Shown here piece after piece: positions 21 through 4,384 of a stretch of DNA of 4,435 nucleotides (positions within the stretch are counted from its first letter, which is position 1; each line of letters begins with the position of its first letter). Source of the stretch: a virus (Duplodnaviria > Heunggongvirae > Uroviricota > Caudoviricetes); IMG/VR virus record IMGVR_UViG_2548876863_000003, positions 1 to 4,435 of that record; one strand, 5' to 3'. The notes under the pieces are model-generated. The model was given only the letters and a program-made list of their open reading frames with translations. It did no database searches and had not been told where the DNA came from. A program made the position numbers and the translations under genes.

Positions 21-103
21 AAACGCAGCACCGCTCCGCTTAAGTGAACGGCATTGGACGCTAAGGTCGGGTTATTGTTGTGTGTTTTAGAGTGGTGAGG
101 CTG

Positions 104-757
104 TTAACTAAATGTCTCTTCAGGCCACTGGCTGGCGATAACTTTCCCTACTACGGAACAGCTATCATTGCATGGAATCATTGGATATTGCGGGTTTAGT
201 GGTTGTAGGAACACCTGACCGCTATCCCTGATCAGTTTCTTGAAGGTAAACTCGTCACCACCAAGTCTGGCTATGCAGAAATCACCTGGCTCAACAGCCT
301 GCTCAGGGTCAACGAGAATTAACATCCCGTCAGGAAAGCTTGGCTTGGATCCTGTTGGCGCGGTCATGGAATTACCTTCAACTTCAAGCCAAAACGCACA
401 ATCACTGGCTTTTTTGGTTGTGCTGACCCATCTCTCCGCATCACCTTTGGTAAAGGTTCTAAGCTCAGGCGAGAACATACCGGCCTGAACATGAGAAAAA
501 ACAGGGTACTCATATTGTTTTTTAACGGGGGCAGATGAGTATTCGCCAACAGGTGAAAATGTACCGTCGTGGTTGAATGAGACGTTATCAATACCAAGGT
601 ATTTAAACACCACACCAATCTCGTCAAGAGATGGATGACGAGATCCGCGCAACCAGTGACCAATTCCACCCTGCGTCATACCAAGCTCTTCGGCTAACTT
701 CTCTTGAGTTATGCCGAGCTCTTTCATTCTGGATCTAGCCAGTTCATACCATTTCAT
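104..757 (-). CDS. cI: CI-type prophage repressor: N-terminal XRE-family helix-turn-helix domain plus C-terminal S24 (LexA/CI) self-cleaving peptidase domain
   Basis: The ORF track gives 104..805, but that ORF begins with TTG. I place the start at ATG 757 ([18 protein letters not shown]...) because AAGGG lies 7 nt upstream; ATG 763 and ATG 799 are alternatives. The C-terminal domain carries the S24 hallmarks: a QAG Ala-Gly self-cleavage site, a GNSM serine motif and a GKVIASQW lysine motif. From [12 protein letters not shown] to the end it is near-identical to the phage lambda CI C-terminal domain as recalled from memory (only about 3 substitutions). The N-terminal HTH domain is unrelated to lambda's. 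The stop is TAA at 104-106. Confidence 0.9.
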
Positions 758-874
758 TTTCATACCCTTATTATTACGCTCTGTACTAAAATCATCCATG
801 CACAAGATGTATTTTTTGTTTGCATTCTAAAAGTACATATCGTATTATTGCGTTATGGTTACTATGGAGGGCAT
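758..874. promoter_or_regulatory. Divergent immunity control region (OR-like operators with PR-like and PRM-like promoters) between the repressor and cro
   Basis: Position between divergently transcribed repressor and cro genes, AT-rich. Candidate rightward promoter: -35 TTGCAT (820-825), 17-bp spacer, -10 TATTAT (843-848), then GGAGG (866-870) and cro ATG at 875. Candidate leftward -10 is TAGAAT on the minus strand (829-824). Individual operator sites could not be resolved by eye; there are short inverted AGTACA/TGTACT elements at 782-787 and 832-837 and TATTATT(A/G)CG repeats at 768-779 and 843-852. Confidence 0.5.
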
Positions 875-1090
875 ATGAGCAACCTACGAAAATATCGAGA
901 GTCACTGAATATCTCTCAAACAACACTTGCTAAGGCAGTTGGATGCACACAGGGAGCTATCGGACATTGGGAATCTGGTCGTCGCTTCCCAGACCTTAAA
1001 ACATGCCGTGCTCTTGTTGCGTGCCTAAACAAGTTAGGCGCAAAAGTCAGTCTTGATGACGTGTTCCCGCCGGAACACAAAGCCGCTTAA
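875..1090 (+). CDS. cro: Cro-like small HTH repressor (71 aa, XRE family)
   Basis: ATG at 875 with GGAGG 4 nt upstream; 71 codons; stop TAA 1088-1090. The HTH is ISQTTLAKAVGCTQGAIGHW, and its recognition helix (TQGAIGHW) closely matches that of the divergent repressor (TQGGIGHW), as expected for a repressor/Cro pair sharing operators. The protein ends in KAA. It is the 3' part of tracked ORF 704..1090, whose 5' extension overlaps the repressor start and is not credible. Confidence 0.85.
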   Translation: MSNLRKYRESLNISQTTLAKAVGCTQGAIGHWESGRRFPDLKTCRALVACLNKLGAKVSLDDVFPPEHKAA

Positions 1091-1100
1091 TAAGCGGATC

Positions 1101-1146
1101 CGCTCTTTGTAACAACGGACATTCGTCCTACGTCGCTGAAAAGCGA
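1101..1146 (+). promoter_or_regulatory. nutR-like antitermination site: boxA-like element followed by two short hairpins (boxB candidates)
   Basis: CGCTCTTTGTAACAA (1101-1115) resembles the boxA consensus (CGCTCTTA in lambda, TGCTCTTTAACAA in rrn). Hairpin 1 is GGAC-ATTC-GTCC (1117-1128). Hairpin 2 is TCGCT-GAAA-AGCGA (1133-1146), a 5-bp stem with a GNRA-type loop reminiscent of lambda boxB (GCCCU-GAAAA-AGGGC). The position between cro and cII matches lambda nutR. Confidence 0.45.
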
Positions 1147-1221
1147 GTTCCAAGATATCTGACCAACTAAGGCCATATGCGTTTCCACGCATACCTTTCA
1201 ACTAACTATTCACTACTGGAA

Positions 1222-1254
1222 ATCTTAAGAAATGGAACAAACAAGTTACAGCAA
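1222..1254 (-). promoter_or_regulatory. PRE-like CII-activated leftward promoter embedded in the 5' end of cII
   Basis: The minus strand reads TTGC-TGTAAC-TTGT (1254-1241), a TTGC-N6-TTGY direct repeat like the lambda CII box (TTGC-N6-TTGC). It is followed by 13 nt and then TAAGAT-TTCC (1227-1222 onward), which mirrors the lambda PRE layout as recalled (TTGC-N6-TTGC, 13 nt, AAGTAT-TTCC). The location in codons 4-8 of cII is the same as in lambda. Confidence 0.45.
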
Positions 1255-1528
1255 ACTATCACAGCGCGACGTTGATCGCGCAGAAACAGATTTACTCATC
1301 AACCTGTCAACGCTTACCCAGCGCGGTCTGGCAAAGATGATTGGCTGTCATGAATCGAAGATAAGCAGAACGGACTGGAGATTTATTGCTTCGGTCCTGT
1401 GTGCTTTCGGAATGGCATCAGACATCAGTCCGATTAGCAGGGCTTTTAAGTATGCGCTTGATGGACTCACCAATAAAAAACGCCCGGCGGCAACCGAGCG
1501 TTCTGAACAAATCCAGATGGATTTTTAA
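1232..1528 (+). CDS. cII: CII-like transcriptional activator (98 aa)
   Basis: ATG 1232; stop TAA 1526-1528. The C-terminus LTNKKRPAATERSEQIQMDF is essentially identical to the lambda CII C-terminus (ILTNKKRPAATERSEQIQMEF, from memory). The N-terminal 78 residues are diverged but of the same length and pattern (KISRTDW here versus QISRWKRDW in lambda). Confidence 0.9.
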   Translation: MEQTSYSKLSQRDVDRAETDLLINLSTLTQRGLAKMIGCHESKISRTDWRFIASVLCAFGMASDISPISRAFKYALDGLTNKKRPAATERSEQIQMDF

Positions 1529-1539
1529 CTGCTTTCTAT
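1474..1539 (-). ncRNA. oop: oop-like antisense RNA (about 66 nt) overlapping the cII 3' end, ending at a GC-hairpin plus U6 intrinsic terminator
   Basis: Plus-strand 1472-1524 (CAATAAAAAACGCCCGGCGGCAACCGAGCGTTCTGAACAAATCCAGATGGA) matches, as I recall it, the lambda sequence that encodes the 3' two-thirds of oop RNA. On the minus strand this gives ...CGCUCGGUUGCCGCCGGGCGUUUUUUAUU, a GC-rich hairpin plus U6 with the 3' end near 1474-1480. The predicted 5' end at about 1539 follows from the promoter at 1547-1555. Confidence 0.55.
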
Positions 1540-1546
1540 GGAGTTA

Positions 1547-1555
1547 ATTATGGCA
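1547..1555 (-). promoter_or_regulatory. pO-like extended -10 promoter (TGcCATAAT) for the oop-like RNA, overlapping the HNH gene start codon
   Basis: The minus strand reads TGCCATAAT (1555-1547), i.e. a TGn extension plus CATAAT hexamer. In lambda (from memory) the pO -10 is also CATAAT and also overlaps the start codon of the downstream rightward gene (O, ...TCATTATGACA...). Here the same hexamer overlaps the ATTATG of the HNH gene. Confidence 0.5.
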
Positions 1556-2350
1556 AAAAAACCTACACCAGACCAGGTAAAAAAGATTCGTTCCGGCATT
1601 ACCAAGAAAATACGGTTTGAGGTTTTCAAGCGCGATGGCTTCAAATGCCAGTACTGTGGGAGTTCTGCGCCAGACGTCATCCTTCATGTCGACCATATCA
1701 ACCCAGTTAGCAAGGGTGGCGATAACGACATGATGAACCTTATTACTTCTTGCGATAGTTGTAATGGCGGGAAAAGCGACAAACTGCTCAGCGATAACTC
1801 AATAATGGAAAAGCAAAGGCAGCAACTCCAGGAACTTAATACCAAGCGAGAGCAACTGGAGATGATGATCAAGTGGCGAGATGGTCTTAAGAGCCTGAAA
1901 GACGATGTTGTTGATATTGTCGCTACCAAAATTGACGACTGCATTGCGCCATTTACTGTTAATGACAATGGGCGAAAATCTATCAAGAGATGGCTTCGAA
2001 TATATAAGCTTGAAGAAATCCTCGATGCGATTGAGATTGCTGCAGACAAAAAACTCACCCAAGAAATAACCCATGAGCTTACTGGTGAATTCTTTGAGTA
2101 CATCCCTCGCATAGCAGCGACAAAAAGAAAACCGCCAAAAGAACAAAGGATTCTATACATCAGAGGAATCCTTAAAAACCGCATATATATCAATCAAAAC
2201 CATGTAATGAGTTATCTCAAGGCATGGCTTTCATACGACTTAGATCTCGATGAACTTACTGAGTTTGCGAAAACAGTACCTAACTGGACAACGTTCAAGG
2301 AGTGGGTATCTGAACGCATTCGTGAAGCTCAGGAAGAACTCCCGTACTAA
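1550..2350 (+). CDS. HNH-family endonuclease (about 266 aa) with an N-terminal HNH domain, a coiled-coil-like segment and a roughly 150-aa C-terminal domain of unknown function
   Basis: ATG 1550 with GGAG (1540-1543) 6 nt upstream; the in-frame ATG at 1538 lacks an RBS. The HNH motif is complete: CQYCG...LHVDHINPVSKGGDNDMMNLITSCDSCNGGKSDK (two Cys pairs, H-x-D-H, conserved N). A Q/E/L-rich heptad-like stretch follows (QRQQLQELNTKREQLEMMIKW). Stop TAA 2348-2350. The gene sits between cII and the replication initiator, in a co-directional tightly packed operon. Confidence 0.8.
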   Translation: MAKKPTPDQVKKIRSGITKKIRFEVFKRDGFKCQYCGSSAPDVILHVDHINPVSKGGDNDMMNLITSCDSCNGGKSDKLLSDNSIMEKQRQQLQELNTKREQLEMMIKWRDGLKSLKDDVVDIVATKIDDCIAPFTVNDNGRKSIKRWLRIYKLEEILDAIEIAADKKLTQEITHELTGEFFEYIPRIAATKRKPPKEQRILYIRGILKNRIYINQNHVMSYLKAWLSYDLDLDELTEFAKTVPNWTTFKEWVSERIREAQEELPY

Positions 2351-2361
2351 AGGTGGACAAA

Positions 2362-3249
2362 ATGGCACGTTCAAGAAATATCAAACCAGGCTTTTTCACC
2401 AATGATGAATTAGCTGAGTGTTCTCCATATGCCCGTCTCCTTTTTGCCGGGTTATGGACTATTGCTGACAAAGAAGGGCGGTTGGATGATCGCCCAAAGA
2501 AAATTAAAGCAATGGTACTGCCTTTCGATGATGTGGACTGCAATGATCTGCTTCAGCAACTTCACAGTCACAAATTCATCAACCGATATCAGGTAAATGG
2601 CGGCTCATATATCCAAATCAATAACTGGAAAAAGCACCAGAACCCTCACTGCAAAGAAGCTGCCAGTGAGATACCAGAACCAGTAGAGAACAATAACAGC
2701 ACCATGCAAGTACAGTGCAATGACGATAAAGGGGAAGAGAAGGAGGATGCAGAATCACTTCAAGTCATTGAAAACAATGAAGCACCAGAAAAGCACCATG
2801 CAAGTACAGTGCAAGAACAAGTTGAGAACAGTTTAAATCCTGCTGATTCCCTTAACCTGATTCCTGATTCCCTTAACCTGATTCCTGATTCCCTTTCTAA
2901 CACCCAAGCCGCTGACGCGACTTGTGAAGGGGGTGGGGCTGATGTCCATAAAATTTCAAGTCGCTATGCATTCGAAGGAAATATCGTTCGGTTAAACCAC
3001 AAGGATTACGAAGCATGGAAGCGCCTGTATCCGAACATTGACCTGAATTACGAGCTGGAAAGGCTGGATATCGAATTTAGCCATGAGAAGCCAAAGAACT
3101 GGTTTATCACTGCCAGCCAGAAACTCAGCTACCAGAACAAGCAGGCGTTATCCAGACCGGTACGCAAGGTTGCTAATGGACTTAAGGCTGAAAACTTTGC
3201 CACCAAGGATTACGGACAAACTGAAATGCCTTCATGGGCGCAGGAGTGA
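2362..3249 (+). CDS. Putative replication initiator (functional analogue of lambda O): conserved N-terminal domain, acidic low-complexity linker encoded by repeat DNA, C-terminal domain
   Basis: ATG 2362 with AGGTGG (2351-2356) 5 nt upstream; the tracked ORF starts at GTG 2353. Stop TGA 3247-3249. It lies immediately upstream of, and is translationally coupled to, the DnaC-like loader. The central region (about aa 95-200) is E/N/Q/D-rich low complexity and coincides with the DNA repeats at 2698-2901. The family assignment is not resolved from sequence alone; the protein is not lambda-O-like in sequence. Confidence 0.65.
   Translation: MARSRNIKPGFFTNDELAECSPYARLLFAGLWTIADKEGRLDDRPKKIKAMVLPFDDVDCNDLLQQLHSHKFINRYQVNGGSYIQINNWKKHQNPHCKEAASEIPEPVENNNSTMQVQCNDDKGEEKEDAESLQVIENNEAPEKHHASTVQEQVENSLNPADSLNLIPDSLNLIPDSLSNTQAADATCEGGGADVHKISSRYAFEGNIVRLNHKDYEAWKRLYPNIDLNYELERLDIEFSHEKPKNWFITASQKLSYQNKQALSRPVRKVANGLKAENFATKDYGQTEMPSWAQE
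2698..2720. repeat. Copy 1 of a 23-bp exact direct repeat AGCACCATGCAAGTACAGTGCAA
   Basis: Identical 23-mer at 2698-2720 and 2792-2814, offset by 94 bp (not a multiple of 3), so the two copies are translated in different frames (STMQVQC versus KHHASTVQ). The conservation is therefore at the DNA level. Confidence 0.8.
2792..2814. repeat. Copy 2 of the 23-bp exact direct repeat AGCACCATGCAAGTACAGTGCAA
   Basis: See copy 1; exact match read directly from the sequence. Confidence 0.8.
2843..2901. repeat. Tandem 21-bp repeats (CTGATTCCCTTAACCTGATTC x2 plus a partial third copy), an iteron-like array
   Basis: Units at 2843-2863 and 2864-2884 are identical; the third (2885-2901) diverges after CTGATTCCCTT. 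The core CTGATTC occurs five times (2843, 2857, 2864, 2878, 2885) with alternating 14 and 7 bp spacing. The array encodes DSLNLIP-DSLNLIP-DSLSN in the initiator linker. Confidence 0.8.
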
Positions 3250-3251
3250 AC

Positions 3252-4097
3252 ATGACGCTGGATGAAAAGATCTCCCAACTGGAGAAAAAACTTGCAGAAT
3301 TGAGTTCTCCGCCAATTGCTATCGAGCATACAGCTGTAGAAATTGGCTCTGGCATCTGTGAAAAACATGGTGAGTTTGAGCAGCGTAACCGTTACTCGAC
3401 TGGGCCAATTAAGTTTGCCTCAAGACCTAGCGAATGCCCGGAATGCATGAGAGATGAGCTTATTCGGCTACAGGCAGAGAAGATTAAAATCGACGAGGAA
3501 TCACGTAAGCGCAATGTCGAGTTTCTGTTGAATAATCTTGATATTCCTGAACGATTCAAGGGTTGCACACTGCAGAACTACGAGCCAGTCAACGACGATG
3601 CAAAGAGAGTGCTCAGGGTGTGTCAGGCATACGCCAGCAAATGGCCTGAGAGGTTACAGAAAGGCGGTGGGCTGGTTATGTGTGGAAAGCCTGGTACTGG
3701 AAAGAATCATCTTGCACTGGCTATCGCCCGGCACGCAATTACGGAACATCAAAGCTCAGCTATTTTCACAACGGCGCTGAAAATTGCCAGAGAATATAAA
3801 TCAACATGGTCGAAAAACTCCACCCGCACAGAGGATGAAGTGATCCGACAGTTCACTAAACCTGACCTGCTAATTATCGATGAGGTTGGTGTGCAGTTTG
3901 GAAGCGAGGCGGAAAAGATGATCATGTTCGAAATCATCAACACCCGCTACGAGCGCATGAAGCCAACAATCCTGATTAGCAACCAGAGCAAAGATGAACT
4001 GTCTGCATTCATTGGTGAGCGTGTTATTGACAGGATGAATGATGGCGGCGGATGCACCCTTGCGTTTACATGGGATAGTTACAGGAGCAGATCGTGA
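3252..4097 (+). CDS. DnaC/IstB-family AAA+ ATPase, putative replicative helicase loader
   Basis: ATG 3252 with AGGAG (3242-3246) 5 nt upstream; the tracked ATG 3234 lies inside the upstream gene. Walker A is GKPGTGKNHLALAI and Walker B is LLIIDEVG; the C-terminal region (ERVIDRM...SYR) is DnaC-like. The N-terminal region has a C-x2-H...C-x2-C cluster (CEKH...CPEC). Stop TGA 4095-4097. Confidence 0.9.
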   Translation: MTLDEKISQLEKKLAELSSPPIAIEHTAVEIGSGICEKHGEFEQRNRYSTGPIKFASRPSECPECMRDELIRLQAEKIKIDEESRKRNVEFLLNNLDIPERFKGCTLQNYEPVNDDAKRVLRVCQAYASKWPERLQKGGGLVMCGKPGTGKNHLALAIARHAITEHQSSAIFTTALKIAREYKSTWSKNSTRTEDEVIRQFTKPDLLIIDEVGVQFGSEAEKMIMFEIINTRYERMKPTILISNQSKDELSAFIGERVIDRMNDGGGCTLAFTWDSYRSRS

Positions 4098-4384
4098 CTG
4101 GAAAAGAAATCATCCTGGAATATCTGAAAACTCATGAACAATTCTCCCCACATGAATTAGCACTGATTACCGGAATACCAAATAACAGAATCGCTCAAGC
4201 AGCAAGGCATATGGTGAAACAAGGGCATTTGAGTGTTGTTGAGCGTAAGTGGAAGACGGTTATTTATGCAAAACGCAAAGTGAAGAAGGAGCCAATTAAA
4301 AGAAATCCAGATGGTACGGGGTGGGGATGTGCAAATCCAATGACGGCGTTTATTAATAGGGCGCTTATGGAGGTAAGGCAATGA
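4094..4384 (+). CDS. ren: Ren-like protein (96 aa)
   Basis: GTG 4094 overlaps the DnaC-like stop (GTGA), with AGGAG (4083-4087) 6 nt upstream. The N-terminus MTGKEIILEYLKTHEQF resembles lambda Ren (MTGKEAIIHYLGTHNSF, from memory); length (96 aa) and position directly after the helicase-loader gene match lambda ren. Stop TGA 4382-4384. Confidence 0.6.
   Translation: MTGKEIILEYLKTHEQFSPHELALITGIPNNRIAQAARHMVKQGHLSVVERKWKTVIYAKRKVKKEPIKRNPDGTGWGCANPMTAFINRALMEVRQ

Follow-up and report, generated by a model that had tools for sequence, protein, structure and literature searches.

A shared cII-end/oop joint between the immunity and replication modules in a lambdoid Escherichia coli phage fragment

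The window, by which we mean the whole stretch of DNA analysed here (4435 bp, a complete IMG/VR fragment), is early-region DNA of a lambdoid E. coli phage. A gene for a LexA-like CI repressor occupies positions 104-757 on the minus strand, followed by a gene for a Cro-like HTH protein (875-1090) and by cII (1232-1528, plus strand). The 98-amino-acid product of cII belongs to the Pfam family Phage_CII (PF05269, E = 7.8e-35), with a score of 119.4 bits against a gathering cut-off of 21.3 and residues 1-92 covered. The right-hand part of the window is the replication module, whose first gene, with its ATG at 1550 (1550-2350, plus strand), encodes an HNH endonuclease (Pfam HNH, PF01844, E = 1e-13) and fills the slot of O in lambda. 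It is followed by an initiator gene with no Pfam match (about 2362 to 3249) and by a gene for a DnaC/IstB-like loader that ends at 4097, after which a small ORF follows. The nearest records are those of phages Dewey and Louie (98.9% identity over 57-4384, the cII N-terminus excepted), together with the Stx1a phage Stx1_121427 (99.6% from 1100 onward), the cII product of which is 100% identical to that of the window. The HNH gene itself is 98.8% identical to that of phage Dewey. A plus-strand terminator-like hairpin was also observed inside cII at 1372-1397 (GGACTGGAG..CTTCGGTCC, then a T-rich tail); it may be due to chance, and the scan returned three terminator-like sites in 1000-1800 where 0.9 were expected.

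Aligned with lambda (NC_001416) by MAFFT, the window is identical to lambda 38591-38646 at 56 of 56 positions in 1466-1521, a block that belongs to neither strand in particular and forms the joint of the cII/immunity side and the replication side. Extended to the end of cII (1466-1528), the match is 60/63, the mismatches at 1522, 1525 and 1527 changing E to D, leaving F silent and converting the stop TGA to TAA. Identity to lambda is 42.7% over the preceding part of cII (1232-1465) and 38.4% over 1529-1700, and a perfect run of 56 bases would arise by chance with p <1e-18, given a background identity of about 45%. The sequence-only reading of this DNA had claimed elevated lambda identity at 1472-1524, and the alignment bears this out: its limits were right within a few bases, the exact run being off from them on each side. 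It had likewise recognised that the N-terminal two-thirds of cII is only distantly related to lambda. The sequence after the cII stop, which it took to be unrelated, is only partly so and includes a small conserved island at 1540-1557. Finally, the block is lambda-identical to the letter but is not lambda's own: it is a tail that at least five cII allele families have in common.

The protein mirrors this division. CII shares 43% of its amino acids with lambda CII overall, about 28% in the N-terminal part, and 19 of the last 20 residues. Its 78 N-terminal codons represent the Stx-phage allele (933W / VT2-Sakai / 2851), and the last 20 codons are a pan-lambdoid tail.

On the plus strand, the block encodes this CII C-terminal tail, LTNKKRPAATERSEQIQM(DF). 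In lambda, the C-terminal 16 amino acids of CII constitute the FtsH tag, CII1-81 is still active, and the tail is both required for fast degradation by FtsH and sufficient for it (PMC5869508). Because the C-terminal tag is dispensable (PMC5869508), the block begins, on its left, almost precisely where the functional core gives way to a dispensable tag. The block has a third overlapping role that the sequence-only reading had missed, namely encoding the CII FtsH degradation tag (PMC5869508). It could be argued from this role, and from the 19 matching residues, that only the amino acid sequence of the tail is kept and that the nucleotide identity is a by-product. We consider protein constraint alone very unlikely, because it does not predict that some 18 third-codon positions in 1466-1521 should all be identical to lambda when nucleotide identity in the rest of cII is 43%.

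The minus strand of the block corresponds to the 3' two-thirds of the oop RNA together with the terminator tO. A terminator scan and covariation place a tO-type intrinsic terminator of an oop-like antisense RNA at 1477-1504 (minus strand), in which a core stem (1500-1494 paired with 1487-1481) is followed by a U-run (1480-1475) and by a predicted 3' end at about 1474; folding programs add a weak G-U pair (1493-1488) to the stem. Scanning both sequences showed that the hairpin and U-run (1504-1475) are the same as in lambda tO. In its position antisense to the end of cII, and in having its intrinsic terminator within the cII tail, the element agrees with lambda-type oop RNA. An Rfam scan of the window gave no match, and lambda's own oop likewise had no significant match, indicating that Rfam holds no oop family.

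Diverged cII genes were gathered by protein search and their tails were then read individually. The tails of 2851, tX, POCJ13, phiEt88, 24B, Hafnia phage Meifeng and Atlantibacter L138 differ in sequence and mostly in amino acids, yet all seven of these diverged types keep a GC-rich minus-sense hairpin followed by a U-run. Owing to G-U pairs that exist only in the minus sense, the minus strand gives the more stable of the two folds in all variants. When nine distinct variants were aligned, pairing was found in 94.4% of cells, against 35-49% with the partners slid; four of eight pairs showed double-sided (compensatory) changes, and none of 500 shuffles reached the observed covariation score. 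Meifeng, whose longer hairpin was misaligned by MAFFT, was left out of the formal pair count and folded separately.

As an observation apart, the Atlantibacter subterraneus prophage L138 (about 1734-1790) has a 933W-type cII with a different, shorter tail (..LTNEKPQPSGNSIRA*). This tail still holds an 11-bp minus-strand hairpin, then UUUUUC, so that the antisense terminator is kept while the protein tail is replaced.

Given that the hairpin and U-run are maintained through compensatory changes in diverged tails, selection on RNA structure in the block is supported, as the sequence-only reading had proposed in invoking constraint from oop and its terminator. The same changes count further against protein constraint alone, since the diverged tails alter most residues while preserving the antisense hairpin. 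In the protein alignment, moreover, no tail residues are invariant other than K82, K83, P85, Q93 and I94, and the codons of K82, K83 and P85 are those that form the U-run and the first stem bases of the minus-strand terminator. The invariant K-K-x-P of CII tails may be dictated by the antisense terminator (U-run and stem) and not by protein needs; if so, an RNA element writes part of a protein degradation tag.

Structural selection has a limit as an explanation. Working hairpin and loop variants exist, so it cannot account for letter-perfect identity. This identity extends over loop bases and about 18 third-codon positions between flanks at about 45%, and recent shared ancestry, that is, exchange, is therefore needed.

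We examined the neighbourhoods of the block in other phages. More than 120 IMG/VR contigs contain an exact 46-mer of the block, and the 26-nt tO core was found with five upstream cII clusters and eight downstream gene clusters, the latter including lambda O, P22-orf48-like and HK97-gp53-like small ORFs, two 24B-type genes and the HNH gene of the window. Among 189 loci, 23 of 40 possible flank combinations were seen. Compared with the window, the left breakpoint falls at 1466 in 60 of 131 distinct contexts, and the right one at 1521 in 107 and at 1529 in 17 of the 131. It should be noted that many loci came from the exact-block search, which inflates apparent invariance; a block-independent sample, chosen by N-terminal cII motifs, gave the same picture. 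In that sample a patchwork is visible within the 63 nt, where 1466-1474, the terminator, 1505-1521 and the last two codons assort separately. Near-identity between diverged flanks in many combinations is what characterises a lambdoid module boundary (linker), and this is what is found here.

The perfect identity of the 56 nt does imply a recent shared ancestor, and one might accordingly see in the block a single inherited lambda-derived fragment of plain recent common descent, with no special junction or RNA role. This is the least probable of the readings considered, and we regard it as extremely unlikely: a single transfer leaves the recurring boundaries (60 and 107 of 131 contexts) unexplained, as well as the 23 flank combinations and the structural covariation in diverged versions. 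Repeated exchange at the joint is what these patterns suggest to us. The crossover-point role that the sequence-only reading had offered as its other alternative is supported by the variety of modules found on either side of the same block and by the concentration of breakpoints at 1466 and 1521/1529.

A search of genome contigs with a four-sequence cII alignment gave six loci. RNA runs, available as unstranded contigs, yielded additional joints of this kind but no ends of transcripts. In one independent contig (X26, derived from an RNA-seq run of the same organism, 13 kb, depth 355), a lambda-type cII is joined exactly at 1466 to the HNH flank of the window type, which lends further weight to a crossover point; this contig carries Dewey-type SNPs at 1522, 1532 and 1539. 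In a metagenomic contig (X25), a 24B-type terminator-loop variant is joined to the window-type flank at 1493. These two contigs are further natural recombinants at and inside the block. The window has a comparable composition. Its positions 875-1465 are 97-100% identical to phage 2851 (VT2-Sakai-type cI, cro, nutR and cII N-terminus), and from 1522 onward it is Dewey-type (98.8%). Judged from these matches, the window is a recombinant in which a VT2-Sakai/2851-type cI-cro-cII(N) segment, the shared tail and a rare Dewey-type HNH-led replication module are put together. Because Dewey shares cro and the replication module with the window, and not the cII N-terminus, the cII N-terminal segment (about 1100-1465) appears to be a cassette of its own, with nutR as its left limit and the tail block as its right limit.

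Of 5426 complete E. coli genomes, 1440 (27%) contain the 63-nt block; a genome carries as many as four copies, the E. coli copies number 1654 in all, and partners for recombination are accordingly abundant. The block followed by the HNH flank was found in only 18 of the 5426. We also noted that 49 block places in complete E. coli genomes lie on plasmids (phage-plasmids or excised prophages), and that strains 0H24, 0H25 and 0H26 have the HNH-type junction on an extra record of 30-39 kb as well as on the chromosome. Contigs of 3.5-3.7 kb with an E. coli-type cII (85-89% amino acid identity) were seen in Segatella copri and Oxalobacter sp. MAGs, where they most likely represent binning contamination by Enterobacteriaceae prophage DNA.

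The rarity of the HNH module (18/5426 genomes), together with its presence behind at least three cII alleles, could also point to homing. The nuclease (1550-2350) would cut HNH-less phages near the cII/oop junction and repair would co-convert the flank, making the right breakpoint at 1521/1522 a homing scar and not a general crossover point. The HNH gene does adjoin the junction, and comparison with Dewey and contig X26 shows a cluster of three SNPs (1522, 1532 and 1539). We nevertheless hold homing to be highly improbable, since the breakpoints 1466 and 1521/1529 are also used by seven other right-hand types that have no HNH gene, and since the HNH gene travels with the whole replication module at 98.8-99.6% identity; neither a target site nor cleavage is known. 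Homing may still have helped this one module to spread. Crossover by general recombination at the joint is the reading that we retain.

To the right of the block, the window departs from lambda. A predicted oop-like RNA of about 66 nt lies at 1474-1539 on the minus strand, its start being placed by analogy with the lambda spacing from the -10. Its 3' 55 nt (1474-1528) run antisense to the end of cII, and the oop RNA of lambda likewise overlaps cII over 55 nt (PMC3349717); its 5' 11 nt are unlike lambda. The 77-nt oop with a long 5' stem-loop (GAUAGAUCCAG paired with CUGGAUUUGUU) is not found here, as the 5' arm GAUAGAUCCAG is missing. In place of lambda's long oop stem there is a 6-bp local hairpin, AAAUCC/GGAUUU, and the predicted RNA folds into the terminator plus this compact hairpin (MFE -22.3 kcal/mol, z = -3.0). 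The compact hairpin is created by the three substitutions at the cII end, and a similar arrangement exists in epsilon34. A compensatory pairing of the window-specific SNP at 1532 with a lambda-type segment at 1506 was considered and rejected, as it overlaps the inner hairpin and lies outside the MFE fold.

A candidate pO extended -10, TGcCATAAT, was read from the sequence at 1547-1555 (minus strand), and its hexamer (1552-1547) overlaps the ATG of the HNH gene, as the lambda -10 does over O. The candidate -35, TGGTCT (1575-1570), is weak, with a 3/6 match to consensus, and the candidate promoter as a whole falls under the threshold of a consensus scan that recovers lambda pO (TTGAGT-17-CATAAT, upstream TG). 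A real promoter is still favoured, because (C/T)ATAAT recurs at the same place in seven of eight junction types although the SD-to-ATG spacer is otherwise free to vary. We infer that oop would be transcribed in the window from the CATAAT at 1552-1547.

This region lies within the second, small conserved island (1540-1557, plus strand), which comprises the SD GGAG, a spacer, the ATG (1550) and CAAA, and which is a unique match in the window. Its sequence, GGAGTTAATTATGGCAAA, keeps the Shine-Dalgarno/ATTATG/CAAA motif common to lambdoid phages and corresponds to the 3' half of a 33-bp oop/pO homology already published for lambdoid phages (motif from PMC3349717). The full 33-bp consensus has no match in the window with up to 3 mismatches; only its 3' 18 bp are present. 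With both the 5' half of this homology and the 5' arm of stem I missing, oop function may be altered here. Moreover, the OOP-dependent RNase III cut of lambda lies 12 nt past the cII stop (PMC5869508), a position that falls at the very end of the predicted duplex in the window, so the mechanism may differ in detail. The window, Dewey and epsilon34 junctions may define a short oop class that lacks the canonical long 5' stem and the region of the lambda RNase III site and has a compact hairpin instead. The twofold proposal that the window, Dewey and epsilon34 form a distinct class with a short oop (about 66 nt) and, in addition, that K-K-x-P is set by the antisense terminator is one that we put forward only tentatively and consider rather unlikely to hold in full.

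Taken together, 1466-1521 is a known common cII-end/oop joint of lambdoid phages, real but ordinary, and it is very probably explained by a slow-changing cII-tail/oop/tO island that serves for crossover between immunity and replication modules. RNA constraint and crossover, which the sequence-only reading had posed as alternatives, are both supported and complement each other. What was observed directly is how identity runs along the sequence, that breakpoints recur, that the flanks occur in many combinations and that the terminator shows structural covariation; the recombination pathway is our proposal. On the plus strand, the block encodes the dispensable, disordered CII C-terminal tail, which in lambda is an FtsH proteolysis signal; on the minus strand, it would provide the body of the oop antisense RNA and its intrinsic terminator, an RNA that pairs with the cII mRNA 3' end and in lambda leads to RNase III-dependent decay. 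Such overlapping constraints would slow change and leave a near-identity island between phages otherwise about 45% identical, and this island sits just where the immunity/cII module meets the replication module. Homologous recombination, by host RecA or by a phage Red/Rad52-type system, could then use it as a crossover with co-resident or co-infecting lambdoid phages as partners. Crossovers of this kind would shuffle cII alleles against replication modules and homogenise the island to letter-perfect identity. The window would be one such recombinant, its right module being the Dewey-type HNH, initiator and DnaC-like loader.

The block is a textbook-grade example of how the modularity of temperate phage genomes persists, with no new principle. 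One short segment is under three overlapping constraints, from a protein degradation tag, from an antisense RNA and from a terminator. The identity island allows lysogeny-control alleles and replication modules to be reassorted by recombination, also in Shiga-toxin prophages. It marks the point at which reassortment of immunity versus replication types is to be expected in E. coli prophages. For annotators, a caution is that lambda identity at the block tells nothing about the adjoining genes.

The junction is already described in the literature, and the sequence of the window is already present in GenBank phages. Hayes et al. 2012 compared 23 lambdoid phages by alignment of the region, found a 33-bp oop/pO stretch to be highly conserved and described a lambda/P22 hybrid that crosses over inside pO (PMC3349717). 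In its passage on this stretch, the same paper identifies it with "sequence 5" of Clark et al. 2001 (HK620), and the cII/oop overlap and its regulatory role date, as cited there, from Krinke and Wulff (PMC3349717). Martinsohn et al. 2008, where they cite Clark 2001, refer to modules being exchanged where short conserved sequences flank them, by homologous recombination (PMC2327257). A 2022 paper on lambdoid co-transfer (PMC9836094) makes no mention of cII or breakpoints. OOP-like RNAs have been recognised in Stx phages and in the Salmonella prophage BTP1. Relative to this body of work, the only mildly new point is the shortened oop variant predicted at HNH-type and epsilon34-type junctions.

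Two annotations met in the comparison deserve mention. The cII of Dewey (locus 1594-1947) is annotated with a 20-codon N-terminal extension, MVYAFICIHSINCYLRKYLH, as is also the case in the mEp332 annotation, and the start codon of the Dewey gene was probably called too early. In phage mEp332 (locus 407-832), the annotated "cII" is a 141-aa frameshifted product, of lambda type as far as about residue 61 of lambda CII, after which it runs out of frame through oop into O; it is probably a frameshift mutant or a sequencing error.

Compared with the cII 3' end/oop/tO region of lambda (38599-38675), the window has the same tail and terminator (56/56), with the same hairpin and U-run, the same 55-nt antisense overlap with cII (window 1474-1528) and, as candidate -10, the same CATAAT with upstream TG over the next start codon. 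It differs from lambda at three of the last seven bases of cII, in the replacement of the oop 5' 22 nt, including the stem I 5' arm and the RNase III cut region, in a -35 that is not TTGAGT, in the length of the predicted oop (about 66 nt versus 77 nt) and in having an HNH nuclease gene, and not O, downstream. The lambdoid oop/pO boundary sequence (ACTGGATCaATCcACAGGAGTaATTATGaCAAA; PMC3349717 Fig. S1) has the same position and the same role of linker between immunity and replication; its 3' half, GGAGTnAATTATGnCAAA, is present at window 1540-1557, whereas its 5' half, ACTGGATCaATCcACA, is missing, so that the homology consists of the cII tail and a separate 18-bp island. The Stx phages 24B and 2851 have a cII N-terminal allele 97% identical to that of the window, but their tails are variants (a 3-nt loop insertion and a TCCCCGG stem) and their replication genes are of the O type, the 2851 tail matching the window block at 44 of 63 positions. 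Dewey and Louie, in turn, have the right-hand module and the cI-cro region in common with the window, while the phage-21-like cII N-terminus of Dewey is only 40.6% identical to that of the window.
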